From positions 1 through 25,482 of the forward strand of contig JBDREN010000038.1 of assembly GCA_043819795.1 (NCBI GenBank): a stretch of 25,482 nucleotides of DNA. Direction: 5' to 3'. This document shows positions 2 through 25,482 of this stretch, one piece after another. A program made the position numbers and the translations under genes. The notes under the pieces were generated by a model. The model searched no databases. It was not told where the DNA came from and saw nothing but the letters and a program-made list of their open reading frames with translations. Source of the DNA: Elusimicrobiota bacterium. GTDB taxonomy: Bacteria > Elusimicrobiota > Elusimicrobia > UBA1565. Every line of letters starts with the position of its first letter. Position 1 is the first letter of the stretch.

Positions 2-718
2 GGCGTCCTCATCGATCGTGTCGGCGTCGTCGGCGGCCACGGGCGCGTCGTTGACCGGCGTGATCGTGATCGTCACGGTCGCTCCGTCGGAATCGGTCGT
101 CCCGTCGCTGGCCTTGAAGGTGAAGCTGTCCGAGCCGTTCGCGTTCTCCGCGGGGGTGTAGGTGAGCTCCGGAGCAGTGCCGGTGAGCTCCCCTTTCTCG
201 GGCCCGGTCAGGACCGTATAGCCGAGCGTCTGGGAATCGATGTCCGAGGCCGTGAGCGTTATCGCGGCCGCCTCGTCCTCGTTGGTCACGACCTCCTGGC
301 CGTGGGCGGTCGGCGGGTCGTCGACCGTATTGATCGTCACGGTGAAGGACCGCGGCTCGGACACTTCCCCTTTATCGTCCCGGACCTCGATGGTCACCAC
401 GGCCGAGCCGGAGAACTCCCGTCTCGGATGTACGTGCACGGTGTTGTCGTGGGCCTGCTCGTTCCCGCGCAGGGCGAATGCGCCGCTGTCCGGGTCCTCG
501 CCGAGGGTCGCTGTCGGGATATCCGCCTCTCCGCCGGTCGAGCCGTCCGAGAGCCCGAGCGCGTCGATGACCTCGGCCATATTGACGATCCGAAACTCGA
601 GAGTCTCCATCGGAGAGTCGTCGGTAACAAACTCGCGCAGATCGCTGGGCCCCGGATGGAGGGCGTTGTCCTCGTCCACGGTTAGGTCCGGGAGCTCGGC
701 CAGGACCGGCGCCGCGTT
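2..718 (-). repeat. Cadherin-like / Big_9 (tandem-95-type) Ig repeats within the 2-4081 CDS
   Basis: Repeated motifs: [47 protein letters not shown]...[22 protein letters not shown]...[17 protein letters not shown]...IDED. Confidence 0.8.
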
Positions 719-3700
719 GCAGTCCGGATCTTCCGTTCCCGCCACTTCCTCACACCATTGCTCCGCGGTGCACTGCCCGTCCTCGCCGCAATCGCACAGG
801 TCGCCCGTCCCGTCTTCGTCCACATCCGCCTGATCCGCGTTGGCGATCGTCGGGCAGTTGTCGCAGGCGTCGCCAAGCGAGTCCGAGTCGCCGTCCTCCT
901 GCTCGGTGTTGGCCGCGGCCGGGCAGTTGTCGTCGGCGTCGGGAATCGCGTCCTCGTCCGCGTCGGCAACGGTAAACGCGGCCGAGTCCGAGGCCGCGGC
1001 GCCGGTGACGTCCTCGACCGCCGCGGTGAGGGTGTGCGCGCCCCCGGCGAGCCCCGACAGCGCGAAGGCCGCGCTGCTTGAGAATACCTGGCCGACCACC
1101 GGCTCGCCGTCCAGGCTGACCGCCAGACTCTGGGCGGAGCCTTCGCCGCTGAAGGATACCGCCGCCTCCATAGAGGAGGCGTTGACGGACGAGCCGTCCA
1201 AGCCGTTGAGGATGGACACCGTGGGCGGCGCGCTCCCAAGCGGCAGGAAGTCCGTGTGGATGCCGGCGGCGTTCTCAGCCCTGACGCGGGCGTGGTACGT
1301 GTGGGTCGAATACAGGCCCTCGAAGAGAGCGCTCAGGGCGTAGGTCGCGGAGGCCGCGGCCACTTGCGTGATCGTCGGGAAGTCCGACGTGGCGAGCTCG
1401 ACCGAGTAGAGGGTGCCATCCGGATTGTACCCGCCCTCCTCGGTGCCCGGGGCCCAATTGAGCGTGAGGCCGGTCTGCGAAACATTCGTGAAGGCCGCGG
1501 TCTCGGCCGGCGGAGCGGGCGGGACGGCCAGCGTGTGCGCGGAGCCTAGGTCCGTGAAGTCGCTGAAATCGGAGATGGATCCGAGGAACACGGCCACGCG
1601 GGCGTAGTGCAGGACGTTGGCGTCCAGGTTTTCGAACGCGGCGCTCAGGTTCTTGGTCTCGCTGGAGGCCAGCACCGACGAGAATCCCGGGTCGCCCGAG
1701 ATCTCGGCCCGATAGACCGCGCCCGGCGGATTGCCGTTGGCCGTCCAGCGGGCCCTCAGCGAGGCCGGCGCCTCCGCCGTCAGGGGAGGCTCGCCCGGAG
1801 CCGGGGCCAGGTAGTCGGGCGTGAAGATGTAGCCCAGGAGCGAGAAGCCGGAGCCGGCGCCGCTCTGGTTCAAAGCCTGCACCCGCACATAATAGGTGGT
1901 GCGCGGAGCCAGAGTCGTGAACGAGGACTCCAGGCTCAGCGTGGTGGAGGATGCGGCCAGGGGGGAGAAATCGGGCGAGACGGAAGCCTGCGCCTGGTAC
2001 AAGGTGCCCTCAGGATTGCCTCCGGAGGCCCAAGCGGCCCTGAATCCGCGCACCGTCGGCTCGGTGAGCTCGCCGGGCTCGGGGATGGCCGCGGCCGTGA
2101 GCCCGGAAGCCGAGTCGTGGCTTAGCGACTCCACGCCCGTTTCGGGGTTCTTCGCCAAGCCGGACACCACGAGCGGCGTGTTGGGGGGAAGCCCGGTGAA
2201 CGTGAATTGCGAGGTAAAGGGATCGAAGAAGGGCGAGCTGGCCACCACGTTCCCCTGGGGGTCGCTCAGCAGCACCTGCGTCTCGGCCGGCAGGCGGTTG
2301 TTGCCCGGCGTCCAGTCCACCTTCAGCGAGCCCGGACCAAGCGCGACGGTCTGGAAGGCGCGCATGGAGTTGGGCCGCGTGTAGCCCGCGGCCGCGTTCG
2401 ACATCTCGGACATGCCGCCGCCCGTGTCCTGCGTGAACAGGCGGACGTAATAGGTGGTGTTCCCGATGAGGTCCCGCAGGACGTAGGTCTGCGGGTCGCC
2501 GACCGACGTGGCCGTGGAGAAGTTCATCTGCGCCGAGGAGGGCTCGAAGACGGCCTCCGGGTCCTCCTCCCGCTGGAACATGTAACGCCCGCCGAAGATG
2601 TCGCCCTCATCGCCGTCCTCGCCCGGCGACGTCCAATCGAGCGCGAGCTGCCCGCCTTCCGACGCCGTCCGCGCCGACAGATCGTCGACCGTGCCCGGCG
2701 GCTCGTCCAATGCCCGCTGGTCGAAGTTCACCGTGTAGTCCCCGGGCGCCACGTCGAAATCGAGGATGTGCAGGCGGTAGCTCAGGCTCCGGCTGTTCTT
2801 GTTGAAGTGCTTGGCGATCCATACGTTGCGAGGATTGAGCCCCCGGCCGTCCGGTCGCGTCACGCTGACCAGCGGCACCGCCCGGCCGCTGTAGAGCGGC
2901 GCCGGGGCCGAGGTGTGCACGAACTGATTCCCGCCCACCGCGTCGAGCAGGCGCAGCTTCAATACCGGGCTCGGCCCGGACAAGGCCCCCACCAGCTCCG
3001 AGGCCACGTTCACCACCGGGATCGGCTCCGATTGGTCGGACTCGAGGATCACGTCCGGCTCCGCCTCACGGCCCTGGTCGAACCACTCCTCCATCACGGA
3101 CCGCGGGGTCGTGGTGTTCACCAGCATGTCGAACTGGTCGTCCCGGCCCGGGAAGTCCACCAGGACGTCCTTTATAAGCGTGTGGGTCGTCACGCTCTCG
3201 ATCAAGGACGTCAGCTGCCCGCCCAGCTCCGCGGCGTGGGAGAACGAGGCCGTGAACTCGATGAACCTCCCCGAAAGCGACGTCGTCATGATCCACGCCG
3301 CCGGCTTCGCCTTGTTCGGCTCGATGTCGCCGAACGGGATCAGCAGGGTGTTCGGGACGGTCTCGGTGCCCACGTAGGTCCCGATCAGCTTGAAGTCGAT
3401 GAGCAGGCCCAGCTTGTTCTCCACGATCTTCGGCTGGCCCGACTCGATCTTGAATTTCCGGGCGGTGCCGTAGCCCACGTTGTTGACGCGCACGCCCAGG
3501 AAGAACGGCTCGATCGGCTCCACCTCCGGCGTCAGCGGCTCGTCGCCGAACACCTCGAAGGGGAGCACGTACTCCAGGCGGATCGAGGGCTGCGGCTTGA
3601 CCGTGATGAAATCGTCGAACGTCGTCTCCTCCTGCGGAACGCCCAGCGCCAGATACGAGATCCGCGCGCTCACCGCGTAGCGCAGCCCCGCCGGGTTCAC

Positions 3701-4081
3701 CCCCCCGGCCCCAGTGGAGGGGATGATCAGGAAGTGGATCACGCCCTGCGTCTGCGGCTGCACGATCCCCGTCCCGTCCACCGCGTTCACGTTCTCCAGA
3801 TCGCTCACCTTCACGAAGAACAGCCCCTCCGCCGGCTCGCCCGCCTCGTCGCGGATGAGCACCTCCACCTGAAGGTTCTGGATCGGGTCGTCGGGAAGGT
3901 TGTTGTTGAGCGCCAGCCGCGCGTCGAACGCCTCGCGCTCCAGCGTGGCCTCCTGGATGATCTCCAGCTTCACCACCGCGCAGATCGTCTGCGCCGCCGC
4001 CCGGGCGGCCAGAAGCAGCGCGTACGCCGCCAACAGCGACGCCGCCAGCCTCAGCACGCCCCTCCTCGTCCTAGTTGACAT
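2..4081 (-). CDS. Large secreted Ig/FN3/thrombospondin type-3/cadherin-like (Big_9) repeat protein, 3'-truncated by the window edge (at least 1360 aa)
   Basis: Absent from the ORF track because it has no stop in the window. Manual translation from ATG 4081 gives [58 protein letters not shown]... and ends ...[22 protein letters not shown] at position 2. The frame is consistent at both ends (1360 codons). It has a signal peptide, an SD-like GAGGA 8 nt upstream, and an 11-nt overlap with the rhodanese gene end. Confidence 0.93.
719..964 (-). repeat. Thrombospondin type-3 (Ca-binding) repeats plus a small Cys-rich module
   Basis: [58 protein letters not shown] matches the TSP3 pattern DNCPxxxNxxQxDxDxDxxGDxCD twice. 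It is followed by [13 protein letters not shown]...EDPDC. Confidence 0.88.
1230..2710 (-). repeat. Tandem fibronectin type III-like domains (about 5) within the 2-4081 CDS
   Basis: Recurring elements: [46 protein letters not shown]...[37 protein letters not shown] and [15 protein letters not shown]. Confidence 0.8.
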
Positions 4082-4880: not shown

Positions 4881-4904
4881 AAGCGTCTTCGGCTCAAAAC
4901 TTCG

Positions 4905-5423: not shown

Positions 5424-8400
5424 CAATCCAAACGAATCCGTCCAGCCGAGGGGATTATTGAATACGTAGGCGTAGGGGTTGGTGAAGAATACCATGTCTT
5501 CCTGGATGAATCGCCCGATGTTCGGGTCATAGTATCGTTCCCGATAGTAGTAGATGCCCGCGTCTGCCTCCAGCTCGCGTCCGGTGAAGGCGAAGGGGTT
5601 GCCGACCGTCGACGCGGCCGAGACGTTCCCGGACGCCTCGTCGTGGAACACGGCTCTCCCGAAAGCGTCGTAGAACACACGCTCCACCACGTCCCCCTGG
5701 GCGTTGGTCAGGGCCACGGGGCTGTGGAGACCGTCGAGATGGTAGAAGAAGTCCTGTCCGCCCCTGCGCATGATGAGCGGCTGCTCGCCGCCATGGATAT
5801 ACGTGAACAAGGCCTCGAGCTGATTGTCGCCGTCGAGGATGGCCAGGATGTCGGCCCCATCGTACACGTACCGGGAGATCTCCGTATCCGTCCCCCGGGT
5901 CACGGTCCTTTCGGATCTTCGACCGAAGACGTCGTAGCGGTAGGATATGACGGTCCCGTCGGGCAGCTCGATCCGCGTGAGCCGGTCCTGGCTGTCGTGG
6001 GAGTAGTTGGTGGAGCCTCCCCCGGACCGGCTCGTCTTCCGGGTCAGGTTGCCGCTCGCGTCGTAGCTGTAGTCGAACTCGGCGTCCTGGAGGTTGCGGT
6101 TCGCGTCGTCGTAGAGGTAGCCGGACCCCCGCGCGTCGGCCACGCGGTTGCCCGCGGCGTCGTAGGCGAAGGTCTCGTTCAAGAAGGGCAGCTGCGTGTC
6201 CGCGGGGTGGGACGCCGAGGTCAGGCGGTGGATCTCGTCGTAGCTGAAGCCATGCGTCCCCGAAGTGTCCCGCAGGCTGACCCGGTTGCCCGCGTTGTCG
6301 TAGCCGTACTCGGCGAACGCCAGGGCCGTGGTCCCTTTCCGGTGCAGGATCTGGCGGATGCGTCCTCCGGCGTCGTAGGAGTAGTTGGTCGCGGTCCCGT
6401 TGGGGAGCTCGATGCTCGTCCTCTTGTCCCGGCTGTCGTAGGTGAAGAGGACGGTCTGGCCATAGGGATTGGTGATCGAGGTCAGCCGGTCGAGGGCGTT
6501 GTAGGAGTAGGAATACGTTCCCCACGGAGTGGTCAAGCCGGTGCGGTTCCCGTTCGCGTCGTAGCTGTAGGAAAGCGAGACGCTCAAGCCGCCGGGCAGG
6601 GTCTCCTGCATGCCGGCCCGCAGGCCCGCCGAGTCGTAGGTTTTGTTCGCGGTCGAATCCGGTCCGGAGGCCCGCGTCAGCTTGCCCCCGGCGTTGTATT
6701 CGAGGATGGTGTCTCCCTCCGGTCTCCGCTGGGCCGTGATGCGGTCGCGCTGGTCGTACTCGAAAGAGACGGACTGCCCGCGGGCGTTCGTCGCCGAGGT
6801 CAGGGCGCCGGTCTCGTCGTAGGTGAGGCTTTCGCCTTGGCCCAGGGGGTTGGTGGTCCAGGTGCGCCGGCCCCGCGAGTCGTGGCCGAAGCGGGTGACC
6901 TTGTCCCGGGGGTCGGTGATCTCGGTGAGGATGGGCCTGCCTGCCGCGAAATCGTAACCGAACCGGGTGACGTTGCCGCGAGCGTCCGTCACGGAGGTTA
7001 CTCCCCCGAACTCGCTGTAGGTCGTCTTGGTCGCCTTCCCGGCGTTGTCGATGGCCTCCGTGACCCGTCCGAGCGTGTCGCGTATCAATACCACCTTTTC
7101 GCCGAGAGGGTCCGTCATCGAGCTCAGCTGCCCTTGCGGATCGTATGTGAAGTCGGTCCGGTTCCGGTTCGCGTCCCAATGCGAAACGGGTCGGCCGCCC
7201 TCGTCGTATGCTATCTCCTTGATGCTGCCCAGGGCGTTCTCCACCTTCCTCAAGCTCCCCCGGCTGTCGTAGACGAGGGCCGTCTTGTTCCCCTTGGGGT
7301 CGGTGATGCTCGTCAGCCTGTTGCGGTCCGGCTCGTAAGTGTACCGCGTGAGCCCACCTTTGGGATCGGTGGCCGACGTGACGTTGCCTCGCGTGTCATA
7401 GGTGAACCGCGTGGTGCTGCCCGAGGGGCCCGTTATGGCGGTCTTGTTGAGCTGGTCGTCGTAGACCACCTGCGGCTGCCAGGCCGAATCGCCCGTTACG
7501 CTCGCCAGCGCCTTCCTGCCGCTCTTCTCGACGTATTCGAAGGTCTTCTGGTTCCCGGAGGCGTCGGTGGTCACCGTCTTGGACGCCGCCGTGTCGTAGG
7601 AGACCGAATACAGGGTGCTTCCCGCGGAGTCCGCCAGCGAGCTCACCCGGCCCGCGCTGTCGTAGGCGACCGCCATGCTCCTTCCGCCCCAGCCTTTGGC
7701 GATCGATGTCATCCTGTGGTCGGTGTCGTAGCCGAACGTGTCCTCGCGGCCTTCCGGGGTGGTGATGGCCAACATGTCCCCGTTCGAGCCGTAGTCGAAC
7801 GTTTGGGCTCTGCCGTCGGAAGTGGCTACCCGATGCAGCCTGTCCTGCGTGTCGTATTCGAAGCTGAGGGAGTCCCCGGACGAGCCCCTGGCCTCGATGA
7901 GCTTGCCGGCCGAATACGCGAGCTCGGTCGAGCTGCCGTTCGCGCTCGTTATCAGGGTCGGCCGGAACTTGGTCCCCGACTTGTCGAAGCGCGTGGCCTG
8001 GCCGTTGGGACGGGTCAGCTCCAGTATCTCGGGCGTCCCGTCCGGCGCGGTCTGGACCACGGACATCGCGTCGGACGCCCCGAGGGGAGGCACGAAGACC
8101 TTGCCGCCCACCGCCGGCTGGAAGAGCTTCTGGCCCCCGCCGGGGTTGACGTAGGTCATGGCTCCGGAATCACCCATGAAGACGGCCGAGTTGAAGTTGT
8201 GCGACCAGCCGGCCCCGAGGCCGGAGCCCAGGAGATTCTCGGCCTCCTTCAGTATCTTGGAGTTGAACATGGGTATGAATTTCAGGGAGTCCATCAAGCT
8301 CGGATCCATCGGCCTGGTCAGCATTTCCGGGCCTTCGTATATCCAATTCCCGCCGAACGGCTCTATGAAAGCCTCCTCCAACATCTCTTCCCAGTCTATG

Positions 8401-17400: not shown

Positions 17401-20400
17401 CGGTTGTCGCCGAAGCCGCTGCCCCTCAGCGTCACCTCGGTGCCCGGCGCGCCGCTTCCCCGGCTCAGGGCGTGGAACTGGGGAGGGCCTTCGACGGTCA
17501 CGTTGTCGAAGGTCTCGATCAGCCCGCTGCCGTAATACTGGGCCCCGCCGTAGAGCTCGAGCTGGAGCATCCCGATGCTGTCGAGGAAGTCGACGCCGGC
17601 CCCGGTGCTGTCGCGAGTCAGGTCCACGTCCGTCATCATGGCTTGGCCGTCGAGGTCCAAGCTGAAGGTCTTGTCCGCGAGATTCAGGGTGATGTGGATC
17701 TGGTGGACCGTCGCGTCCGGGTGGGGGTCGGTGGCCAGGAGCAAACCGATGGGGACCTTCTTCAGTAGGTGGGGCGCCGATCCGGCGGGTCCCCTGCCGT
17801 AGAGTCCCAGCTCCGTGCGGAACGCGCCGTTGTCGTTGTCCTTGCCCAGGTCCAGCCGGATGTACCTTTCCAGCGGGAAGTGCTGGCTTCCCTCGCGGCT
17901 CGCGGCCACCGTCCTGAAATAGATCCCCGGGACGCGGCCGTTGCCGTCCGCCTTCTTGCCCGGCTTCCAGTTCAGGTTCACATGGTAGACGCCTTCTTTG
18001 CGGAACTGGGCCACCGAGTACGCGGCCGCTCCCCGCCACGGGCAGCAAGAAGAGTAGTCCGTCCGGATCCTTAGTAAGCCGCTCCCCACCTCGATCCTGC
18101 CGTTGCCCGAGTTGGAGGTCGCCCGCCATTTGTCGGTGTCCAGCGCGCCCGCCTGGAAGTCGTCGCTCAGCAGGAGAGGCAAGGTCTCCGTCACCGTGAA
18201 CCGGAAGCCGCCGACCTCGGGACCACGCTCGGCCTTGAGGACCACGGCCTGAGTCCCCAAAGGAGACCCCTCCGGAATCCGGACGGTCACCTCCCCGTCG
18301 CTCCAGCTCATGACGGGGATATCGTTGCCGCCGAGACGGACGTAGCCGCTTCCCTGGCTGGCGCCGAAGCCGCTGCCCGTCAGGGTCAGCTCGGTGCCGG
18401 ACGGTCCGCTTCCCCGGCTCAGGGCGTGGAACTGAGGCGGGCCTTCGAAGGTCACGTTGTCGAATTTTTCGATGAGCCCCGACCCGTAGACCTGGGCCCC
18501 GCCGAAGAACTCCACCTGGAACTTGCCGATGCTGTCCAAGAAGTCCACGCCGGCCCCGCCGCTGTCGCGGGTCAGGTCCACTCCGGCCATGATGGGCCGG
18601 CCGTCGAGGTCCAGGCTGAAGGTCTTGTCCGCGAAGTCCAGGGCGATGTGGACCTGATGGACGGTCGCGTTCGGGCTCGGCTCCGTGGGCAAGAGCAGGC
18701 TCATGGGGACGCGCTCGAGCAGATGCGCGGTCGTTCCGGACGGCCCTTTGCCGTGGAGGCTCAGCTCCGTGCGGAACGCCCCGTTGTCGTTGTCCTTGCC
18801 CAGGTCCAGACGGATGTACCTTTCCTGCGGATAGTGCTGGCTTCCATCGCGGCTCGCCGCCACCGTCCGGAAATAGACGCCCGGGATGCGGCCGTTGACG
18901 TCCGACTTTGTGCCCGGCTTCCAGTTGAAGTTCAGGTGGTAGACGCCCTCCCGGCGGAACTGGGCCACCGAGTAGGCGGCCGCTCCCCGCCACGGGCAGC
19001 AAGAAGAGTAGTCCGTCCTGATCTTCAAGAAGCCGTCCGCCACCTCCACTCGGGCGTTTCCTGAGTTGCTTGTGCTCCGCCACTTGTCCGGGTGCAGCGT
19101 GCCCATCTCGAAGTCGTCTATGAGCAATAGGGGCAGGGTCTCCGTCACCGTGAACTGGAAGCCGCCGAGTTCGGGGCCGAGCTCCGCTTTCAATGCTATG
19201 TCCTGCGGTCCCAAGGGGGTGCCCTCAGGAATGCGGACGACGATGGAGTCGTCGGCCCATCCGACGACGAGGAGGTCGTTGCCGCCGAGACGGACGTAGC
19301 CGCTTCCCTGGCCGGCGCCGAAACCGTTGCCCATCAAGGTCAGCTCGGTGCTCGAAGGGCCGCTGCCCCTGCTCAATGCCAGCAGCTGGGGAGGCCCCTC
19401 CAGCCGGACGTTGTCGAAGGTCTCGATCAAGCCCGACCCGTAGAGCTGGGAGCCGCCGTAGAGCTCCACCTGGAACTCGCCGAGGCTGTCCAGGAAGTCG
19501 ATGGGGTTCCCGCCGCTGTCGCTCATGAGGGGCACATCGCTCATGACCGGCTGTCCGTCGAGGTCGAGGCTGAAGGACTTGCTCGCGAAATCCAGGGTGA
19601 TATGGAGGCGGTGGGATGTCGCGTTGGAGCTCGGAGCCGCGAGAATGGGGGTGGTGAGGACCTCCTGCTTGATGAGGTGCTCCATGGCGCCGTAGGGTCC
19701 CTTGCCGCGAAGGGTGAGCTCCGTCCTAGTCGAGCCGGTGTTCGAGTTGCTCCCGAGGTCCAGCCGGACGTACCTCTCGTCGGGGGAGTGATAGGCCCCG
19801 TGCCGGGTCGTGTCCACCGAACGGAAGAAGATTCCCGGGATCTGGCCGTTGCCGTCCGATTTCGTGCCCGGCAGCCAGTCCAGGCTGAGGTGGTAGACTC
19901 CCTGGCCGCCGAAGCGGGAGACCGAGTACGCCCCCACTCCCCGCCATGGGCAGCAAGAGGAGTAGTCCGTCCGGAGCTTCAGGACGCCGTCCGCCACCTC
20001 GGCCCGGCCCTGGCCCGAGTTGGACGCGATCCGCCATTGGGCGCCGTCGAGGCTCGCCGCCTCGAATTCGTCGATCAGCAGCAGGGGCAGCGGCTCGGTG
20101 ACCGTGAACCGCACGGAGAAGCTCTCTTGGCCGGACCCGGTCAGGACCACGAGGTCCCGCGCCCCGGCGGAGGTCCCGGCGGGGACCGCTGCGACGATCT
20201 CGGTGTCGCTCCAGCGGGTCACGGTCAGGGCCGTGCGCGGGACCGCGGGGTCGGCGCTCTCCAGGGATACCGAGCCGCTTCCCTGGACTTCCCCGAAGCC
20301 GGCGCCCGCCAGCGTCAGCTCGGCGCCGACCGGCCCGTTGCCCGGCTCCAGGGAGTGGATCTGAGGGGGACCGGCCAGGGACACGTTGTCGAACGACTCC

Positions 20401-23400
20401 CTCAGCGAGGACCCCATGTACTGCGCGCCTCCGAAGAGCTCGACCTGGAAGCTCCCGATCGCGTCCAGGACGTCGATCGGGCTGCCGGCGCTGTTGAGGG
20501 TCAAGTCCACCCCGCTCATGACCGCGCGGCCGTCGAGCTCCATGCTGAGGGTATTGGCGTCGAAGTCCAGGGCCAGGTGGATTCGGTGGAAGACCGCGGC
20601 CGCGTTGGGATGGCCCAGTACCGGGGAGGGCAAAGTGACGCTCTTGATCGTATGGACGCTGCCCGTACCCCTCCCATAGAGCCCCAGCACGGTCCGGCGT
20701 TCCCCGTGGTCCGCGCTGCTTCCAACGTCGAGGCGGAGATAGCGGTCGGAGGGGGACTGGAGCGTCCCGTCGCGGCTCGCTCCGGCGTCGCGGATGTAGA
20801 CGGCCGGGATCTGGCCCGTGGAGCTGGCCTTGGTTCCGGGCCTCCAGTCGAGGTTCAGGTGGTAGACCCCCGCCTTCTTATAGGCGGGCTTGGTGAAGAG
20901 GGCCACCCCGCGCCGGCTGTAGTTGCCTCCCTCCGTCTTGAGGCTCAGGCGGCCGTCCGACACCTCGATGGCGCTGCTGCCGGACTTCGCCTGCGACCAC
21001 TTTCCCCAATCCGGCGCGCTGCCGGCGAATCCGTCCGAGAACAGGGTCGGAAGGTCGTCGGTGATCGTGAAGAGCCAGGGGAGGCTTGCGCGCCCGTCAT
21101 CGGTGGCGACCGCCAGGTCCTGCGGGCCGAGCGCGAGCCCGGAGGGGACCGGCGCCACGATCTGAAGGTCGGTCCAGCTCGTGACCGTCATGGGGGAGCC
21201 CCCGAGGCTTGCCCCGCCGCTCCCCTGCGTCTCTCCGAAGCCGCGTCCGCTCACGATGAGCTCGCGGCCCGCCGGAGCGCTCGCGGGACTCACCAGGCGC
21301 ACCTGGGGCGGGCCCTGGAGGAGGACGCCGTCGAAGTACTCCGCCAGGGAGGAGGACATGTACTGGCCTCCGCCGTAGAGCTCCACGTGGAAGTCGGCGA
21401 TGTCGCCCAGGAAGTCGATCGGGGCGCCGCCGCTGTCCTGGGTCAGGTCGACGTCCGTCATGAGCGGCAGGCCGTCGAGCTTGAGGCTGAAGGTCTTGGC
21501 GCCGAAGTCCAGCTCGATGCGGATGTGGTGGAACATCGCCGAGGCGGCGGGTTCGGCCGCCACGGGCGGGGCGAGCGTGACGCTCTTCAGGGTGTGGGGC
21601 CCGCCGGCTCCCCGGCCGTAGAGGGTCAGGACGGTCCTCTGCTCGCCGTGGTCCGCGCCGCTTCCCAGATCGAGGCGGATGTAGCGGTTCGTGGGAGCCC
21701 GCGTGGAGTCGTCCCGGGTGGCGGCCGGGTCCCGGAAGTAGATCCCCGGGATCTGTCCCGTGGTGCTGGCCTTGGTCCCCGGCTTCCATTCCAGGTCCAG
21801 CTGGTAGACGCCCGCCTTCTGGAAGGTCTCCTTGGAGAAGAGCGCCGCCCCGCGCCAGCTGTAGTTGCCGCCCCCGGTCGCGAGCTTCAGCACGCCGTTG
21901 GGGAAATCGATCGCCGCCGAGCCGGTCCGGTCGCTCAGCCACTTCGACGCGTCCAGAGCCCCGGAGTTGAAATCGTCCTCGAGGAGCGGGCCGGAGGGGG
22001 GAGGCGGGGTGAGGATGTCGAAGGCGTAGGCGGCGGCGTTTCCTTCCAGGTCCGACGCGGAGAGCTCGACGCGGTTGGTCCGGGGTCCCGCCGAGGGCGC
22101 CAAGTCCAGGCCCGAGGCTGTCAAATAGAAGGGATCGTTCCGGGAGGCCCCCGGAGAGACCGGTTTCAGGTCTATGTCGGAGGAAGAGATGTCCTGCCAG
22201 GTCTCGCCGCCATCGGCGGTGAAGCGTCCGGATAAGCCGGATTCGGCTTGGTACTCCCGCAGGACCTGCTCGGCGCTCAGGGCCACGTTCAGGATGCGGA
22301 TTTCGTCGATGGCGCCGTTCATCATGCGGCCCGGGGTGCCGATCGGGTAGCGGGCGTCGTAGCCGATGCCCACGAGCCCGTTGCCGTCGCGGATCGGCGT
22401 GTCGCTGTGGCCCCAGGACGAAGATCCCGTGGGGACGCCGTTCCGGTAGGCCGTCGCCTTGTCGCCGTCGTAGGTCCAGGCCAGGTGGTTCCACTGGCCC
22501 GGCGTCACGCCCGCCGTGCACGGAGAGGTGCGCCAGGACCCGCCTATGTTGACGTAGAGCTGCGAACCGCTGCTCCCGGCTCCGCAGGATTGGACGAGCC
22601 ATTCGTTGACCGACATGCTGTCGACGCCGTTGCCCTTGGTCAGCCAGGCGTCCGTCCCGTTGGGCTTGTACCAGAACTCGACGGTGAGCTGGTCGGCGGC
22701 GGCCAGGCTGGGGGAGTCCGCGACCTGCACGACTTGGTCGGCCCCGTTGAAGCTCAAGGCCCGGCCGTGGCGGCCCGCGACCCTGGCCGGGGAGCTCACC
22801 AGGCTGCCGTGGTTGCCGCTCCCGGAGGAGTCCTCGGCCGTGGCGCCGGAGGCTTCCTCGAACTGCCAGAGGGCGACCGTCCCGTCGATCTCGGGGAAGA
22901 CGGCCCCCGCGTTCGGGGGCAGCCCGCTGTAGGAGTCCACCAGCGTGACCCGCGCCGAGATTCCGTCATCGGTCGTCAGTGTGTTCGACGCGTCCAGGAA
23001 GGTCGAGCCGTCTTCCGACACCTCGGGCTGGCTGAACGCGGGCGGTGCGGTGTCCGGCGGGGGCGTCAGGATATTGAGCGCGTAGGTCCCGAGGTTCCCG
23101 TCACGGTCGGACGCCGTGAACTCGATCTGGTTGGTGCTCTGGGCGGCGGAGGGAGCGAGGTCGAGACCCGTCGCCGTCAGGTAGTGGGGGTCCGTCGCGG
23201 AGGCCCCCGCGGAGACCGGCGCCATGGCGAGGTTCGCGTACGGCACGCGGGTCCAGCTTTCGCCCCCGTCCTTGGTGTAGCGGGCGCCATGGCCGAACCC
23301 CCGCCTGTAGTGGGCCGCCACCTCCTCGGCGGAGAGCGCGCGTTCGTGGATGGAGAACTCGTCGATCAGGCCGTTCCACTGGCAGTTGCCCAGGAGCCAC

Positions 23401-25482
23401 AGCTGGGCCCCGATTCGGATCGGCCCGGGGCCGGGGTCGAACGCAGTGGCATCGAACCGGTCGATCATGGAACCGCTGGGCTCGCCGTCTATGTAGGCGG
23501 CCCATACGCCGGTCGCCGCGTCGTAGGTCGCGGCCGTGTGGTGCCATTCGCCCACGCTCGCCGTCCCGGCGGAATCCAACGGTGTCCAGCCCACGCCGGG
23601 CTTGTAGCGCATGAAGTGGACCTTCCCGTTGTCGAGGAGGCTCCAGAGGATCCCGTTGCCGGACTCATAGAGCCTGCGGCCATTGACCTCGCTTGGCGGG
23701 AAGGGATTCGAGCGGAACCACGTCTCCATCGTCACGGAGCCGGGGACATGGGCCGTGTCGGGGAGCGTGACCGAATCGTCCGAGCCGTCGAAGCTTCCCG
23801 CTGCCGCGCCCACCTGGGAATCCGGGCTGAACGTCGCGCCGTCCAATGGGCTGCCGTGGTTGCCCCGGCCGGAGGAGTCCTCCCAATCGTTGTCCATGCG
23901 CCAGAATCCGAGCATGTCGCCCGACGGGACGAGGCCGCCTCCGCTCGGGTCCAGGCCCGCGCCCGCGTCCTGGACCGTGACGCGCGCCGAGATGCCGTCT
24001 TTCGTCGTCAGCGTGTTCGACGCGTCCAGGAACGTCACGCCGTCCTCGGAGACGTCTCCCTGGCTGAAGGCCGGCGGCGTGGTGTCCGGCTCGGGGGTGA
24101 GGATGTCGAAGGCGATCGATCCCGGATTGCCGGCCAGGTCCTGGGCTGCGAACTCGATGCGGTTGGTGCCGGGCGCGGCGGACGGGGCGAGGTCGAGCCC
24201 CGCCGCCGTCATGAAGTGGGGATCGGTGCCGGATGTCCCGCCGGGAGCCGGCTCCAGGCTGAGGTCCTCGGGCGGCACCGAGATCCAGGTTTCGCCTCCG
24301 TCCTTGGAGTAGCGGGCCCGGTAGCCCGCGCCCCGCCGGTAGTGCTCGGAGATCTCCTGAGGGGAGAGCGCGCGGTCGTAGATGGCGAACTCGTCGATCG
24401 TCCCGTTCCACTGGCAGTTCGCCAGAAGCCATGGCTGGGCGCCGATCCGCACCGGCCCCCTGTCGTAGCGCACGGAGGTCGCTTCGAACCCGTCGGTCAT
24501 GGATCCGCTGGGCCGGCCGTCTATGTACGCGGCCCACCGTCCCGTGTCGGCGTCGTAGGTGGCGGCCGTGTGGTGCCATGTGTTCAGGCCGACCGTCCCC
24601 TCGGAGTCCAGCGCGATCCAACCCGCGCCGGGCTTGTAGCGCATGAAGCGGATCCGCCCGCTGTCGAGCAGGCTCCACAGAATCTCCATGTCCGATTCGT
24701 AAAGCCTGCGGCCGTTCACCTCGCTCGGGGGGAAGGGCTTCGACCGGAACCACGCCTCCAGGGTGACCGAGCCCGCGGCGTGGGCCGCCTGGGGAAGCGT
24801 GAGCGAGTCGTCCGAGCCGTCGAAGCGCGCCGCCGCCTCTCCCGCCTTGGCGTCGGAGCTGAACATGGCCCCGCCCGAGGGGACGCCGTGGTTGCCCCGG
24901 CTGGAGGAGTCGAGCCAGTCGTTTTCCATGCGCCAGAGCCCGAGCATGTCTCCGGTCGCCGCGAGTCCATGGACGGTCCGATCGATCCCCGAGCCCGCGT
25001 CCTGCAGCGTGACCCGCGCGGTGACGTCGTCGTCGGTCCCCAGGACATTGGAGGCGTCCACGAACGTCGATCCGTCCTCCGAGACCTCCGGCTGGCTGAA
25101 CGCGGGCGGGGCCGCGTCCGGGTTGCCGACGATGAAGCCCACCACGGCCTCCGCCTCGGGATTCGGCTCGGGCGTGTGGTCGGGCCCGGCCAGCCGGGCG
25201 CGGATGGCATGGGAGCCGTTTCGCAGGCCGTTGATCCGGATGGTGTCGGCGTCGATCCAGGCGGCCAAAGGCGTAGCTCCGGGCTCCTCATCGAGCTCCA
25301 CGACGTTGTCGGAGCCGTTGTAGAACATCAGGCGCTGGGCCCCGTCGTCCAGCTGGAAGTGGATGTGCGCCTCGCCTTTGCCGCCGACGGCCCAGTTGGC
25401 TGTCTCGAAGTCCACCGTCACGTTGGAACTCGTCGCCGTCTGGCCTTCGGTCGGGGAGAGTATCCGGACGGTCGGCTGCGGC
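4905..25482 (-). CDS. Giant multidomain RHS/YD-repeat protein (LamG, lectin-like/IPT arrays, Ig/FN3 stalk, RHS core, C-terminal toxin-like tip), 5'-truncated, at least 6858 aa
   Basis: The 6838-aa ORF in the track continues in frame past the listed GTG at 25421 to the window edge (PQPTVRILSPTEGQTATSSNVTVD), so the true start is outside the window. Recognisable domains run along its whole length. Confidence 0.96.
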   Translation of the reverse strand, partial: PQPTVRILSPTEGQTATSSNVTVDFETANWAVGGKGEAHIHFQLDDGAQRLMFYNGSDNVVELDEEPGATPLAAWIDADTIRINGLRNGSHAIRARLAGPDHTPEPNPEAEAVVGFIVGNPDAAPPAFSQPEVSEDGSTFVDASNVLGTDDDVTARVTLQDAGSGIDRTVHGLAATGDMLGLWRMENDWLDSSSRGNHGVPSGGAMFSSDAKAGEAAARFDGSDDSLTLPQAAHAAGSVTLEAWFRSKPFPPSEVNGRRLYESDMEILWSLLDSGRIRFMRYKPGAGWIALDSEGTVGLNTWHHTAATYDADTGRWAAYIDGRPSGSMTDGFEATSVRYDRGPVRIGAQPWLLANCQWNGTIDEFAIYDRALSPQEISEHYRRGAGYRARYSKDGGETWISVPPEDLSLEPAPGGTSGTDPHFMTAAGLDLAPSAAPGTNRIEFAAQDLAGNPGSIAFDILTPEPDTTPPAFSQGDVSEDGVTFLDASNTLTTKDGISARVTVQDAGAGLDPSGGGLVPSGDMLGFWRMDNDWEDSSGRGNHGSPLDGATFSPDSQVGAAAGSFDGSDDSVTLPDTAHVPGSVTMETWFRSNPFPPSEVNGRRLYESGNGILWSLLDNGKVHFMRYKPGVGWTPLDSAGTASVGEWHHTAATYDAATGVWAAYIDGEPSGSMIDRFDATAFDPGPGPIRIGAQLWLLGNCQWNGLIDEFSIHERALSAEEVAAHYRRGFGHGARYTKDGGESWTRVPYANLAMAPVSAGASATDPHYLTATGLDLAPSAAQSTNQIEFTASDRDGNLGTYALNILTPPPDTAPPAFSQPEVSEDGSTFLDASNTLTTDDGISARVTLVDSYSGLPPNAGAVFPEIDGTVALWQFEEASGATAEDSSGSGNHGSLVSSPARVAGRHGRALSFNGADQVVQVADSPSLAAADQLTVEFWYKPNGTDAWLTKGNGVDSMSVNEWLVQSCGAGSSGSQLYVNIGGSWRTSPCTAGVTPGQWNHLAWTYDGDKATAYRNGVPTGSSSWGHSDTPIRDGNGLVGIGYDARYPIGTPGRMMNGAIDEIRILNVALSAEQVLREYQAESGLSGRFTADGGETWQDISSSDIDLKPVSPGASRNDPFYLTASGLDLAPSAGPRTNRVELSASDLEGNAAAYAFDILTPPPPSGPLLEDDFNSGALDASKWLSDRTGSAAIDFPNGVLKLATGGGNYSWRGAALFSKETFQKAGVYQLDLEWKPGTKASTTGQIPGIYFRDPAATRDDSTRAPTNRYIRLDLGSGADHGEQRTVLTLYGRGAGGPHTLKSVTLAPPVAAEPAASAMFHHIRIELDFGAKTFSLKLDGLPLMTDVDLTQDSGGAPIDFLGDIADFHVELYGGGQYMSSSLAEYFDGVLLQGPPQVRLVSPASAPAGRELIVSGRGFGETQGSGGASLGGSPMTVTSWTDLQIVAPVPSGLALGPQDLAVATDDGRASLPWLFTITDDLPTLFSDGFAGSAPDWGKWSQAKSGSSAIEVSDGRLSLKTEGGNYSRRGVALFTKPAYKKAGVYHLNLDWRPGTKASSTGQIPAVYIRDAGASRDGTLQSPSDRYLRLDVGSSADHGERRTVLGLYGRGTGSVHTIKSVTLPSPVLGHPNAAAVFHRIHLALDFDANTLSMELDGRAVMSGVDLTLNSAGSPIDVLDAIGSFQVELFGGAQYMGSSLRESFDNVSLAGPPQIHSLEPGNGPVGAELTLAGAGFGEVQGSGSVSLESADPAVPRTALTVTRWSDTEIVAAVPAGTSAGARDLVVLTGSGQESFSVRFTVTEPLPLLLIDEFEAASLDGAQWRIASNSGQGRAEVADGVLKLRTDYSSCCPWRGVGAYSVSRFGGQGVYHLSLDWLPGTKSDGNGQIPGIFFRSVDTTRHGAYHSPDERYVRLDLGSNSNTGSTRTELTLRGKGPYGAMEHLIKQEVLTTPILAAPSSNATSHRLHITLDFASKSFSLDLDGQPVMSDVPLMSDSGGNPIDFLDSLGEFQVELYGGSQLYGSGLIETFDNVRLEGPPQLLALSRGSGPSSTELTLMGNGFGAGQGSGYVRLGGNDLLVVGWADDSIVVRIPEGTPLGPQDIALKAELGPELGGFQFTVTETLPLLLIDDFEMGTLHPDKWRSTSNSGNARVEVADGFLKIRTDYSSCCPWRGAAAYSVAQFRREGVYHLNFNWKPGTKSDVNGRIPGVYFRTVAASRDGSQHYPQERYIRLDLGKDNDNGAFRTELSLHGKGPSGTTAHLLERVPMSLLLPTEPSPNATVHQVHIALDFADKTFSLDLDGRPIMAGVDLTRDSGGAGVDFLDSIGKFQVEFFGGAQVYGSGLIEKFDNVTFEGPPQFHALSRGSGPSGTELTLTGSGFGASQGSGYVRLGGNDIPVMSWSDGEVTVRIPEGSPLGTQAVVLKAERGPEVGGFRFTVTETLPLLLSDDFQAGALDTDKWRATSNSGNGRIEVGSGLLRIRTDYSSCCPWRGAAAYSVAQFRKEGVYHVNLNWKPGKKADGNGRVPGIYFRTVAASREGSQHFPLERYIRLDLGKDNDNGAFRTELGLYGRGPAGSAPHLLKKVPIGLLLATDPHPDATVHQIHITLNLADKTFSLDLDGQAMMTDVDLTRDSTGAGVDFLDSIGMLQLELYGGAQYYGSGLIETFDNVTVEGPPQFHALSRGSGAPGTEVTLRGSGFGDNRLGGYVRLGGNDLTVLSWSDDAVRVRVPQGTSFGTAGVVMKADIGPEVGGLRFTVTPVLAVLLTDDFQAVSLDAGKWRTASNSGNGRVEVTGGSLRLRTDYPSCCPWRGVAAYSVAQFDKEGLYHLNLDWKPGTKADGNGRVPGIYLRTLAASREGSQYFSQERFIRLDLGKDSDNGAFRTELGLYGRGPAASAPYLVKKVPIGLLLATDPSPDATVHQIHIALDFANKTLSVDLDGQAMMTDVDLTRASDGTAIDLLGSIGKLQVELYGGAQYYGSGLTESFDNVLLEGPPQLRSVRPNFGPPGTEVEIAGVGFGDTRGTGGVSLGAQVLSVTSWSDTSVTAVLPPGAPAGAGSLSVTSGYDQSSRDWLFTVTGPLLTVLEDDFNGFALDADNWEAIVSGPASAQVAGGVLNLRTDYPSCCPWRSALVYSKSQFGQQGVYHLDLDWKPGTKSDGNGDAPGLFFHSPESNRHGTFRSPDDRHLRLDLGRTNDNGPIRTRLGLYGKGASGSPLHTLKTTDLAVPIATATDPDADFQRMHVALDFENKTFSLELDGRAIMTNVDLTKNNSGGAIDFLDTLGDFKVELFGGAQYYGSALVESFDNPSIMLADISVPVAQITSHAENAFVAGLVTVSGTAADEGGINGTEFFIDGAGQGAAEPPAFSFEWDTLAQDAGGAPLYADGPHEVYLQARDSVGNVGASPTVTVQVDNTPPVTSLGLGPNGTNGWYKSPMPTLTLSAADGPGVGAGEVRFSVDEGPETTTTGASAQPGVPEGTHVLSYFAVDQLGNQEDAKSATFHIDLRAPAAPGNPRTTLVEERRVELAWDASADAEGPDPSGTALYRISRRVYEGGAGFSVIADTPTLAYHDTQGLALGETYEYRLQAVDAAGNASVPADLAVFVPDLTPPELSNVSAALSEDETRIDVSWDSSELTTGQVAVGTEPGLYTSTTPAEVDPQDIEQLSRELLTAVEGLDPHTTYYLRAVSIDAFGNQAASEEFTVITDTHPPTLAITAPEAGAAANTDLIIEYTVSDDLTPEESISVRDDQGHDAPPFTFTDDGERTVILTATDAAGNAATASIAFTIDKSGPARIGDLAVAEQRPADGEADLAWTAPSDALGSVAGYVLKSHSEPLDDENWDEAVSHAAPSPSEPGAEESHTVTDLPAEVAYLAIRSQDELGNLSAVSNSVLYDPAPPEVAITAPEAAAVLSRPYAASVTASDSQGIVRVDFLVDGEVAGTDTSPPYEFSFDIRDYPDGAHTLTARALDGFGNSGETTIPVTISYNPPPAPVIEVPQEGFLTATPGIDVSGTAEPSNSVSVYVNGYLAETAAVPANGSFLIQNVLLGVEGAVTLTARTFDSKGTSQPSAPVNGTLDTGPPGPPAQVTAASQSGGRIQVSWDAPQGETPTSYKLYRSNLETDLAEGEAPPPSALIYQGSGAGHTDTPPHDGLFFYGTISQDAAANVSGLSNIAAGVSDRVSPSASLRLTQSVPPLGPGDHPLEVTFSEFLALPPVLTLTPQGQGPATIQLDPETGTVWVGTLTVTAAMNSGTATFGFSGRDFVGNNGSTLTSGRTVVLDTRGPSGSVTFPAIVPTGNYPLTLRLDEPAADTPALSFTPTGKPAVPVALSAAGPDNQDWTASVAIDETTGDGEAAFTYSAEDALGNLSATLSGGITSFIIDTIAPGPPTFVRAIAQQGGVIQLSWSRPDAGELPATYRVFRDGEQLSPAVAPSPDGSGSFADIPSDGPHDYEVASVDAAGNQTKSAVVPAAADSTPPDAPSDLTAQLDTSLPGATRVRLSFRSYPDSESFNIYRALSPIASIAGLTPVLVGQFATAPDGQGLRALFDIPTSDGVFYYAVTALDTLDNESDPSNSSEGVLYDKAAPVIAFSIQDGAFFKADVSPLFTVTDANLDPASVQGLLDGAAFESGTPVSAEGEHILAVSAQDVEGHSAEEQIRFTLDKTPPEIQISGIAEGSTSNDPVAIEILPSDLHLDATTYTLLENTSGASEPYDSGELIGLDGSYTLGARATDKAGNITLRTFSFSLDLSPRAPTALDVSIEGGVASLTWSAADTDIVGYRVYRDGMRISPSLVPQASYQDNAYTGGAAHLFEVEALDTLGQVGARAGITIPPVSLELAAYGVSSGGQQALTRGFFDTVRMQVTNLGGQGRSFGPLELRTVFSGHEPFSRAVSAAYIQAGQSAVMSGTVASAPDLPASGQLQATLTLPTEPGTSARLSRRFAVAARSPQGTIIELFPEPLVRETQAKVKVKFNNRGSAPLDIKTARMSGGSPVSVPDVIVELLTPQGLVVSQGEILQAGNGAQGAIVGGQQVFFVTVPAGSSVLLDPVSVLVPDTAEDSLLVKAKVAEVAHSLPFNPVAGTRSFESTQSQAAVTAPPYTADASADKDVYERGEAATVTGTARDASGQPRPAAKVKVHAQARGFELHFDAFTDSQGVYSVQFVPPQPGVYSVSASHPEVVTYAAQDTFSVIDFGLQYTHYTVRLAQNSTYRFHADLINDSETPLQGLTSEVHGSTPTLSVTLDPDSLPDTLLAGARTSLSIDAHADPSAPVGTSQIDLVVREQNGFERTMPVIFEVSQALAYGKAAPQSLEIGMLAGETREQSITLQNTGFDDWRNVRLTLPTVDFVELQSQSDLGDISPNGTSVFGLRFAPPAGLPSQTIRQPLLEVRSDNVPTIYINAGITITTSREGSLTFNVINADKPKDPVTGQGVGVPNALVVLNSNDISGLTFRATADLNGVARFEDIPAGDYSWNAQSSGFLPDSGIQRVEPGLTQTVVSLLRTATVTYEWSVTPTTIVDEYVITLNATFKTDVPAPVIEVTPTSFELYQEGGQTSYVQFTITNKGLVSAFDVDLSGFQSDGAIQLEPAFTHIAELKAQESVVVPVKVNLVSASCHNAAIRIIYYYLCAFGVPVSANAPGVGFTAGTSCGSSSPGRVVHRGGGGGGGGGGSGGGGGGVWGHTPPSVPFYCGDTPPDETNKALDDCLCDGIGCADIDWEEMLEEAFIEPFGGNWIYEGPEMLTRPMDPSLMDSLKFIPMFNSKILKEAENLLGSGLGAGWSHNFNSAVFMGDSGAMTYVNPGGGQKLFQPAVGGKVFVPPLGASDAMSVVQTAPDGTPEILELTRPNGQATRFDKSGTKFRPTLITSANGSSTELAYSAGKLIEARGSSGDSLSFEYDTQDRLHRVATSDGRAQTFDYGSNGDMLAITTPEGREDTFGYDTDHRMTSIAKGWGGRSMAVAYDSAGRVSSLADSAGSTLYSVSYDTAASKTVTTDASGNQKTFEYVEKSGRKALASVTGDSAWQPQVVYDDQLNKTAITGPSGSTTRFTYDTRGNVTSATDPKGGLTRYTYEPDRNRLTSITDPKGNKTALVYDSRGSLRKVENALGSIKEIAYDEGGRPVSHWDANRNRTDFTYDPQGQLSSMTDPLGEKVVLIRDTLGRVTEAIDNAGKATKTTYSEFGGVTSVTDARGNVTRFGYDFAAGRPILTEITDPRDKVTRFGHDSRGRRTWTTNPLGQGESLTYDETGALTSATNARGQSVSFEYDQRDRITAQRRPEGDTILEYNAGGKLTRASGPDSTANKTYDSAGLRAGMQETLPGGLSVSLSYSYDANGNRTGLTTPWGTYSYSYNALDRLTSITNPYGQTVLFTYDSRDKRTSIELPNGTATNYSYDAGGRIRQILHRKGTTALAFAEYGYDNAGNRVSLRDTSGTHGFSYDEIHRLTSASHPADTQLPFLNETFAYDAAGNRVADARGSGYLYDDANRNLQDAEFDYSYDASGNLTRKTSRSGGGSTNYSHDSQDRLTRIELPDGTVISYRYDVFGRRSERTVTRGTDTEISRYVYDGADILAILDGDNQLEALFTYIHGGEQPLIMRRGGQDFFYHLDGLHSPVALTNAQGDVVERVFYDAFGRAVFHDEASGNVSAASTVGNPFAFTGRELEADAGIYYYRERYYDPNIGRFIQEDMVFFTNPYAYVFNNPLGWTDSFGLMPGPEEALNGVFDERTTKEFLREASQDVGGAEGLKEVAKKAYAAHGGNMKYDFMKKANYKDLKFTVNGQELTAGQFGNYIAGYACTYAYGNAGYLGAQEAGEIFHVSKLWTNTLSHLPFVGKYFYDPDAVDAKFEIHYANGFFWIDDADSVTYVDEGRRDAFADRYRELFCH
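5424..8400 (-). repeat. RHS module: DUF6531-like N-terminal segment, YD repeats and RHS-associated core
   Basis: Starts with IEPFGGN...FNSK...GLGAGWSHNF. Many YD units follow (TRFTYDTRGNVTSATDPKGG, YSYDANGNRTGLT, YGYDNAGNRVSL). The core reads NPFAFTGRELEADAGIYYYRERYYDPNIGRFIQED...YVFNNP. Confidence 0.93.
8511..8561 (-). repeat. Poly-glycine tract (G10-S-G6) including a short perfect (GGA)n run
   Basis: The plus strand reads gccgcctccgcctccgccgctcccgccgccccctcctcctcctcctcctccc, encoding GGGGGGGGGGSGGGGGG. Confidence 0.9.
8700..15581 (-). other. Stalk of mixed bacterial Ig-like, FN3 and carboxypeptidase-regulatory-like domains
   Basis: Repeated DxTPP / AxDxxGN Ig ends and FN3 motifs (LALGETYEYRLQAVDAAGN, GLDPHTTYYLRAVS). 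Carboxypeptidase-regulatory-like segments: VTGTARDASGQPRPAAKV...TDSQGVY and GVPNALVVL...TADLNGVARFEDIPAGDY. Confidence 0.8.
15582..21986 (-). repeat. Array of 7 ConA-like/lectin-type beta-sandwich domains separated by 6 IPT/TIG domains (period about 954 nt, 318 aa)
   Basis: Units start at about 21986, 21044, 20081, 19127, 18173, 17219 and 16266 with a LxDDFxxxxLDxxKW-type motif and end in FDNVxLEGPPQ-like sequence. IPT parts read GxxGxELTLxGxGFG...VxSWSDxxIxxxVP. The CCPW codons recur at spacings of 954, 954, 954 and 951 nt. Confidence 0.85.
22000..25118 (-). repeat. Three tandem units (about 344-352 aa), each an Ig-like domain with an inserted LamG/pentraxin-like domain
   Basis: DxxPPAFSQxxVSEDG starts at 25118, 24086 and 23054 (1032-nt spacing). 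LamG hallmarks: DSSGRGNHG, FDGSDD, WHHTAATYD, YIDG, GxIDEFxIYDRALS. Each unit also has an Asp-box-like (Y/F)(S/T)xDGGE(T/S)W. Confidence 0.88.

Follow-up and report, generated by a model that had tools for sequence, protein, structure and literature searches.

The passages of PMC13018210 covered here name the display and delivery of RHS toxins that have no T6SS or Tc partners as an open question, and they leave the delivery of the teneurin-like proteins (TLPs) unexplained. The same question is raised by contig C38 of an Elusimicrobiota genome (4.99 Mb, 241 contigs, 90% complete). The entire contig, 25,482 nt, was analyzed and will be called the window. It carries genes for a giant protein that ends in an RHS shell and a C-terminal tip (the T-chain), a rhodanese-like protein and a second large protein, the partner or P-chain (Table 1). 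A previous reading of the letters alone (the sequence-only reading) had taken them for one undescribed system. Do these genes belong together, and how would such a giant be held at the cell surface? We consider it probable that they code for a two-chain surface-display system, in which a lectin-armed giant with a likely RHS toxin capsule clamps by a beta-hairpin into a partner that anchors the pair.

Table 1. Features of the window (nucleotide positions on contig C38; aa, residues of the respective chain).
Feature	Position	Strand	Remarks
Partner "P-chain" ORF	2-4081	minus	1,360 aa; ATG 4081; open at 3' end
P domain, aa 31-330	3092..3991	minus	two predicted beta-sandwiches; conserved Cys34 (3980-3982) on N-terminal strand
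Rhodanese ORF	4071-4880	minus	269 aa
Giant "T-chain" ORF	4905-25481	minus	6,858 aa in window; open at 5' end
C-terminal tip, putatively Ntox44-like, 172 aa	4905..5423	minus	motifs YDF-M, GNxxxG, DDxxS
RHS/YD shell, ~970 aa	5424..8321	minus	core ends ...TDSFGL
Gly-rich linker plus four more Cys	8322..8585	minus	start of variable cargo
T module, aa 5395-5632	8586..9299	minus	carboxypeptidase-regulatory-like domain, docking hairpin, Ig-like domain, three-Cys segment
Predicted docking hairpin TVTYEW...DVPAP	8934-9032	minus	within T module
Ig/FN3 stalk core, ~2,100 aa	9300..15578	minus	common to paralogous giants
Seven ~230-aa lectin-like repeats between IPT/TIG domains	15579..21986	minus	AlphaFold, Foldseek
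Three LamG (ConA-like) domains, aa ~175-1085	22227..24959	minus	Pfam Laminin_G_3, 3 stretches; repeat landmarks

Organization of the locus and its paralogues

The arrangement given by the sequence-only reading was borne out by the ORF coordinates. The three genes are co-oriented, with 24 nt (4881-4904) between giant and rhodanese and an overlap of 11 nt (4071-4081) between rhodanese and partner, and a GAGG is placed 9 nt upstream of the partner's start codon. No tRNA genes were found in the window, and neither a sigma-70 promoter nor a terminator in 3500-6000. Among named sequences, those nearest to the partner gene come from Elusimicrobia (55-66% identity). Rhodanese and partner each have a single N-terminal hydrophobic stretch and no other, in agreement with the export leaders read from their sequences.

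We have found the missing N-terminus of the giant on another contig, C160:3-5663(-), by an exact in-frame end overlap of 141 nt that corresponds to the giant's first 46 residues in the window. No other contig overlaps C38 in this way, and end overlaps of 139-140 nt also connect other contigs of the genome. Contigs from two DNA runs on 20000-25482 stopped short of the C38/C160 junction, so that the join is based solely on the end overlap. If it is right, the joined giant would be ~8,670 aa long (about 1,860 + 6,858 - 46 = 8,672), and all three proteins would carry export leaders. Of the two termini that were to be sought in flanking sequence, the giant's was recovered and the partner's was not, no contig overlapping the window's left end.

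In total the genome has five P genes, and T and the rhodanese clade are represented by four genes each. On contig C2 a giant with RHS and a different tip is followed by rhodanese and partner, and on C15 the same order follows a giant without RHS. On C160 an RHS-less giant directly overlaps its own partner, with no rhodanese, while C118 has rhodanese and partner at the contig start. The loci are arrayed in tandem, that of C160 (C160:3-25239; giant of 3,373 aa, partner ORF of 3,152 aa) immediately preceding the window's giant. The rhodanese-P pair is found again in relatives and at three further loci here, a recurrence far beyond what chance would give.

Several other details of these loci were observed. 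At C2, likewise, a gene with a sorting domain ends just upstream of the giant, whose own end overlaps the start of the rhodanese. The leaders of the C2 giant and the window's giant are near-identical (86% over 334 nt). The partner on C118 (C118:1083-9108, locus L006) shows an apparent frame change near residue 1,800. The genome is rich in very long ORFs (12,270, 10,012, 9,998 and 8,226 aa, and more).

The giant: a lectin-rich stalk and a predicted docking module

That the giant is made of extracellular-type domains agrees with its Pfam/NCBIfam matches, which are LamG (three), IPT/TIG (six), Ig/FN3, RHS repeats and Rhs_assc_core. Its window part has no clear transmembrane segment, and the piece on C160 adds a signal-peptide-like leader, five more LamG and TSP3/Cys-rich repeats. 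The seven ~230-aa repeats match no Pfam family. Their AlphaFold model (pLDDT 79) was matched by Foldseek to calreticulin, a legume lectin and the SraP lectin with TM 0.45-0.56, and they are predicted to have an L-type lectin/ConA-like fold, the fold being what would make them glycan binders. The glycan-binding type of stalk that had been proposed is thus supported by the lectin folds present, the binding itself being a prediction. Five of the seven repeats (15579-20084) contain SCCPW, with adjacent cysteines, possibly a vicinal disulfide near a binding site. The stalk core is 44-49% identical to that of the C15 and C160 giants over 2,100-2,350 aa. It is followed by the T module, with cysteines C5595, C5608 (8658-8660) and C5629 in its three-Cys segment.

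A hairpin predicted to dock into the partner

We modeled T (238 aa, 31-row alignment) together with P (300 aa, 67 rows). The ipSAE values were 0.87, 0.88 and 0.87, compared to 0.00 for the best of three controls; contacts agreed by at least 98% and the partner's pLDDT was 84. The mark used for complex models is attained by solved pairs in 116 of 157 cases and by mismatched pairs in 2 of 215, counts that are only rough for the alignments used here, and halves of split genes tend to pass it. In the model residues 90-122 of chain 1, the T hairpin, pair in antiparallel orientation with two strands of P (10-15 and 22-27), and the interface includes T residues 212-215 and 217 (with C5608) and P residues 1-32 (with C34). 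The hairpin is thereby predicted to insert between the first two strands of P. The sequence-only reading had singled out this TVTYEW...DVPAP segment and had supposed that the second large protein docks the giant, as the model now predicts.

The P domain matches no Pfam family at E<=10, its atlas clusters are unnamed and a PDB sequence search gave no match, its 441 homologues being 748-2,380 aa long. Fold searches gave TM <=0.28 and, with VIA, Z <=8.5 to generic Ig folds over residues 19-133 only, and no solved structure listed resembles the N-terminal strand of P, results that do not establish a new fold. The T profile matches PDB entries only outside the hairpin. With no PDB relative of P beyond generic Ig folds and no PDB match to the hairpin, recall of a like complex is not indicated.

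Co-occurrence, gene order and fusion of T and P

Of 401 genomes from the phylum, 20 have T, 21 have P and 17 have both, where ~1 with both would be expected by chance; in these figures kin are not independent, and the search profiles were made partly from the same genomes. The rhodanese clade (cut-off E<=1e-45, set by us) was present in 19 of the 401; in 18 of these P follows downstream at ~1 kb or less, on one contig with the rhodanese, and 14 have all three. The claim that the three families co-occur above chance was upheld by these numbers. So was the conservation of gene order, the rhodanese-P order recurring in paralogues and relatives: rhodanese is directly before P in 22/22 Elusimicrobia-titled loci with at least 700 nt upstream, and nearby in 20 of the 29 other split loci with at least 4.5 kb downstream. 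Of 40 near relatives 5 have P, and the genome collection contains 70 loci with it. In 78 T-anchored metagenome loci, not de-duplicated, P was downstream in 22/24 (at least 9 kb), 19/23 (5-9 kb) and 5/31 (less).

Other lineages have their own orders. The Geobacter/Nitrospira type runs T-giant, optional RHS gene, variable genes, S13 peptidase, P, rhodanese, FN3 protein and large secreted protein. In loci of this type (L042-L075, L086) a D-Ala-D-Ala carboxypeptidase S13 precedes P in 19, the rhodanese is followed by the FN3 protein in 21 and by the large secreted, Ig-rich protein in 18, a DsbA-like thioredoxin occurs in 6 and a small membrane protein with a HEAGH motif in 7. An Eleftheria terrae plasmid (L175:2721-35654) has a T gene, a separate RHS gene, an ankyrin gene, the P gene, a T2SS cluster that includes a cohesin-domain secretin-like gene, rhodanese and transglutaminase. 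In Methylomonas koyamae the order is T+RHS giant, rhodanese, transglutaminase and P. Besides these two, Cystobacter fuscus, Geothermobacter hydrogeniphilus and Nostoc PCC 7120 are cultured, harmless carriers. At L021/L090 a transposase-like gene interrupts the P gene of a relative after ~55 residues.

T and P also occur in one ORF. At nine Planctomycetes/Verrucomicrobia/Delta-3 loci they are fused directly, with ~180 residues separating P from the hairpin. In metagenome proteins and in one of Nostoc PCC 7120 plasmid alpha (WP_044523664) a variable insert separates them, usually Cys-rich and at the same place as RHS or other cargo in the split giants. The direct fusions (L077-L085) contain a second, degenerate copy of P and of the pre-T region ~1,800-2,100 residues further on.

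Cysteines of the two chains

In de-duplicated rows the N-terminal Cys of P was present in 70/71 stand-alone and 13/15 fused-with-insert forms and in none of the nine direct fusions, which lack the T cysteines as well. The stand-alone exception and one of the fused exceptions are pieces of L089, apparently a frameshifted direct fusion. The idea that fusion replaces a disulfide had to be narrowed, as insert-bearing fusions keep the Cys of P and only direct fusions lose it. On the T side the three-Cys segment is usual (12 of 18 RHS-bearing rows); L061 retains the middle Cys only, and the middle Cys is missing in the C15 paralogue and in L087.

A disulfide between partner Cys34 and a cysteine of the giant, most likely C5608, might latch the chains together; we give it about an even chance. 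Split RHS forms have an odd number of cysteines before the shell, as a latch predicts, in just 7 of 11 cases. Counted from the T hairpin up to and including the Cys of P, the number is odd in 17 of 18 fused-with-insert proteins, so the Cys of P may stay free or bond elsewhere; in 9 of 13 fused proteins there is no further Cys within 450 residues.

The clustering could also mean that the proteins are separate cargoes of one secretion system, kept together for co-regulation and without direct binding of T to P. The Eleftheria terrae genes for T, RHS, P and rhodanese, found alongside a complete T2SS cluster, would fit this, and so would a GspD/GspG-like pair in L046. Against it stand the fusion of T and P in several phyla, their joint cysteine loss and the specific complex model, and we consider it very improbable. 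The two-chain display system is the reading that we follow below.

The cargo: RHS shell, tips and immunity genes

The shell has 13 RHS_repeat matches, TIGR03696 and the DxxGL-type cleavage motif TDSFGL, all features of RHS polymorphic toxins; a plug is matched weakly (DUF6531, E 0.016). The two positions that we take to be the catalytic-type Asp of the RHS core appear kept. The tip has a GC of 53% vs 65-69% in the rest. At E<=10 it matches no Pfam family, Ntox44 (PF15607) included, and none of the 15 tip relatives scanned has a Pfam Ntox44 match. A word-indexed homologue search with the tip gave nothing, and a full HMMER search found 37 proteins, other RHS tips among them. In an atlas search 26 of 30 matches were clusters with ~25% Ntox44 members, of low value for recognition, and BLAST against the Ntox44-like tip of one relative gave no significant similarity outside the core end that both share. 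Across 15 aligned tip relatives D52, G77-N78-G82 and D146 are invariant, at positions that match the Ntox44 motifs DxK, GNxxxG and DxxxD (Zhang et al., 2012, PMC3482391, passages covered); the window's tip has Met in place of the family's Lys in DxK. From these motifs we infer a putative nuclease of Ntox44-like type, which may be released on contact.

No immunity gene follows the tip here, where only the short gap to the rhodanese is left, nor at C2, whose tip (L003:1267-1790) has no Pfam match and is unrelated to the window's. This suggests that the tip fails to reach sister cells or is not toxic to them. As the passages of PMC3482391 covered list no immunity protein for Ntox44, such an absence would be usual for this class of tips. 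At relatives' loci with RHS directly before the rhodanese, an ORF of at least 60 aa lies in the gap in 12/14, and downstream genes include Imm32 and DUF4279. The relatives' tips include Tox-HNH-EHHH and Colicin-DNase/WHH with HINT, besides weaker NlpC/P60 and Ntox44 matches. Fourteen extracted tips had no pairwise similarity at E<1e-3, and a toxin-family scan of 14 isolated tip stretches left 11 without a match. A related integrase-core (rve) insertion sequence was seen in the variable gap before the rhodanese at five loci (L024, L037, L038, L039, L040).

What follows T is exchangeable, either RHS with unrelated tips or Cys-rich domains. The RHS capsule, a part of the apparatus in the sequence-only reading, turned out to be an optional cargo, absent in two of the four giants of the genome. 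The split between cargo and P may exist because it frees the C-terminus of the cargo, needed by a tip-bearing RHS shell, and lets tips be swapped; the variation of the tips is observed, and this cause for it is our suggestion. Such optional cargo also suits a different view, in which T and P are the re-associating halves of a split adhesin fold, the whole is a fiber for adhesion or recognition and the RHS tip is a non-toxic or self-harmless passenger. RHS is missing from many homologues too, the cyanobacterial fusions have variable Cys-rich inserts and no RHS at that place, and the lack of immunity genes at C38 and C2 points the same way. On the other hand the tips are low in GC and mutually unrelated, those of relatives include recognized nuclease toxins accompanied by immunity-type genes, the Asp pair of the core appears kept and the missing immunity gene is what the passages covered of PMC3482391 would lead one to expect of Ntox44. 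We judge this view unlikely and keep to the display of a probable toxin.

The rhodanese

The rhodanese has two Rhodanese matches (Pfam/NCBIfam) after its leader and reaches the cut-off of none of the NCBIfam rhodanese families listed. The loop of domain 1 is YCPGGTC, with Cys102 and Cys107 (4560-4577), and domain 2 has Asp instead of Cys. Both loop cysteines are invariant in one alignment (A5), and the active-loop Cys is retained in 22/23 upstream-type rows. In all 20 downstream-type rows, mostly from Geobacter/Nitrospira-type loci, it is Asp, and it is also missing in Eleftheria and Methylomonas, on two proteobacterial plasmids. The gene is absent at the C160 locus and at 9 of the 29 other split loci with at least 4.5 kb downstream. 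The linkage outlives the loss of the catalytic Cys, which argues for a binding or chaperone role, and the protein would be a dedicated assembly helper.

That a thiol or sulfur enzyme matures the cysteines of the giant, as had been proposed, is therefore doubtful as a general role, given Asp for Cys in 20/20 rows and one locus without rhodanese. In its strongest form the proposal makes the rhodanese the key enzyme, whose CxxxxC loop forms a bond at, or transfers sulfur to, partner Cys34 and is required for maturation of the complex. The retention of the Cys in upstream-type rows, the translational coupling to P and the DsbA-like genes of six Geobacter/Nitrospira-type loci with Cys-less rhodanese would all suit such an enzyme. 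The Cys-less rows and the loci with no rhodanese at all do not, and the two cysteines could form a structural disulfide, so that we hold a key enzyme to be decidedly improbable. For the assembly helper, redox activity is possible in Elusimicrobiota only. We have rejected the rhodanese as an immunity protein; it also follows the RHS-less C15 giant and is conserved while the tips change.

Anchoring and export

The partner consists of signal peptide, P domain, FN3, TSP3 repeats and Big_9/cadherin repeats, and its end lies off the contig. The complete partners at C15 and C160 finish in a ~105-aa domain with weak Por_Secre_tail/FlgD matches (for C160 Por_Secre_tail at E 1.6e-4, under the cut-off). 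This sorting-like domain is near-identical in 17 ORFs of the genome and is found in none of the four giants. Six matches to PorV pass the cut-off and a profile made from them finds 29 ORFs in the genome; at L038 and L076 a PorV-like gene lies directly after the P gene. Searches of the genome for SprA_N and for ShlB, the transporter type of CDI and two-partner secretion, gave no match, their positive controls being silent too, and the giant has no FHA-type Pfam match. By analogy with the paralogues, the window's partner likely has a T9SS-like C-terminal domain that anchors the pair at the cell surface, with export across the outer membrane and anchoring mediated by PorV-like barrels. The 17 ORFs and the 29 PorV-like matches, with no SprA match from a search whose control was silent, suggest a possible T9SS-like export route in Elusimicrobiota.

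We have rejected T6SS delivery, as VgrG, TssC and PAAR were not found in the 90%-complete genome with positive controls, and Tc delivery, as SpvB/TcB was not found in it, also with a positive control. Secretins are located on other contigs. The absence of PAAR, VgrG and TcB noted for the window was thus seen for the genome too. The homologous Eleftheria terrae locus is flanked by a dedicated T2SS cluster. The complete T2SS cluster found there suggests that the outer-membrane export route probably differs by lineage.

Relation to known systems

In chaperone-usher pili subunits are joined by donor-strand complementation, and T9SS cargo is recognized by a C-terminal domain and handled by PorV shuttles. 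The predicted clamp resembles the first in that an Ig-like sandwich would be completed by strands of another chain. It differs in that a two-strand internal hairpin links two different giants, with no polymerization of subunits, and Foldseek matches to chaperones or ushers were weak (TM <=0.24). The likeness to T9SS lies in the sorting-like C-terminal domain plus the PorV-like barrels; the SprA translocon was not found in a search with a silent control.

The TLPs come closest, as far as the passages of PMC13018210 covered describe them, in having a Sec-exported RHS/YD shell, N-terminal adhesion domains and a polymorphic tip (a ~15-kDa toxin in TLPs) with no T6SS. They are described there as one chain with an FN-plug/NHL/YD superfold that has its own anchor, of lipoprotein or S-layer type, and an immunity gene accompanies them nearly always. 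Unlike them, the giant has no NHL or teneurin family match (E<=0.01), a second chain likely provides its anchor, and T/P and rhodanese are present. The Sec/"T2SS"-exported RHS polymorphic toxins of PMC3482391 share the conserved N-terminus, RHS shell and exchangeable tip, to judge from the passages covered; rhodanese, LamG and Geobacter are absent from its main text, and those passages hold no two-chain clamp. The giant proteins of Omnitrophota and related bacteria (10.1101/2023.11.21.568195, PMC12057145, passages covered) are also very large, secreted and carbohydrate-binding, with TSP3 and sometimes RHS, and have been proposed to act in attachment and predation, some beside T2SS-like loci. 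For them the covered passages of 10.1101/2023.11.21.568195 give domain lists only, with no "rhodanese" and no partner protein or docking module. The VARTIG modules of Thermococcales (PMC8416519, passages covered) combine a large protein of Ig domains, hypervariable at its C-terminus, with variable small genes downstream; they are archaeal, have no RHS and no partner chain described, and, compared to T/P by description, are an analogue only.

We found no description of the T/P module or of the gene set in the literature passages covered. The sequence-only claim of a conserved, apparently undescribed system that T6SS or Tc genes do not explain has thus held, through the co-occurrence and the negative genome searches. 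This is apparently an undescribed two-chain display module for polymorphic toxins, with binding, export and toxicity as predictions.

Significance

The locus family is a concrete candidate answer to the display of RHS toxins without T6SS or Tc, with two soluble core fragments of 238 and 300 residues, and its hairpin-plus-disulfide coupling, if natural, could serve as a protein tool. More tentatively, T/P might be a widespread self-assembling clamp, made of hairpin and disulfide latch, that defines a new class of display and delivery. Its anchor chain would use the export route of each lineage, such as a T9SS-like one in Elusimicrobiota and the T2SS in Proteobacteria, the other chain would be a micrometer-scale lectin stalk with swappable cargo, and a rhodanese-fold chaperone would hold the incomplete P until docking. 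In Elusimicrobiota, Desulfobacterota, Nitrospirota, Myxococcota, Proteobacteria, Cyanobacteria and PVC bacteria, many "hypothetical" giant genes can be read as carrying one module, either split or fused.
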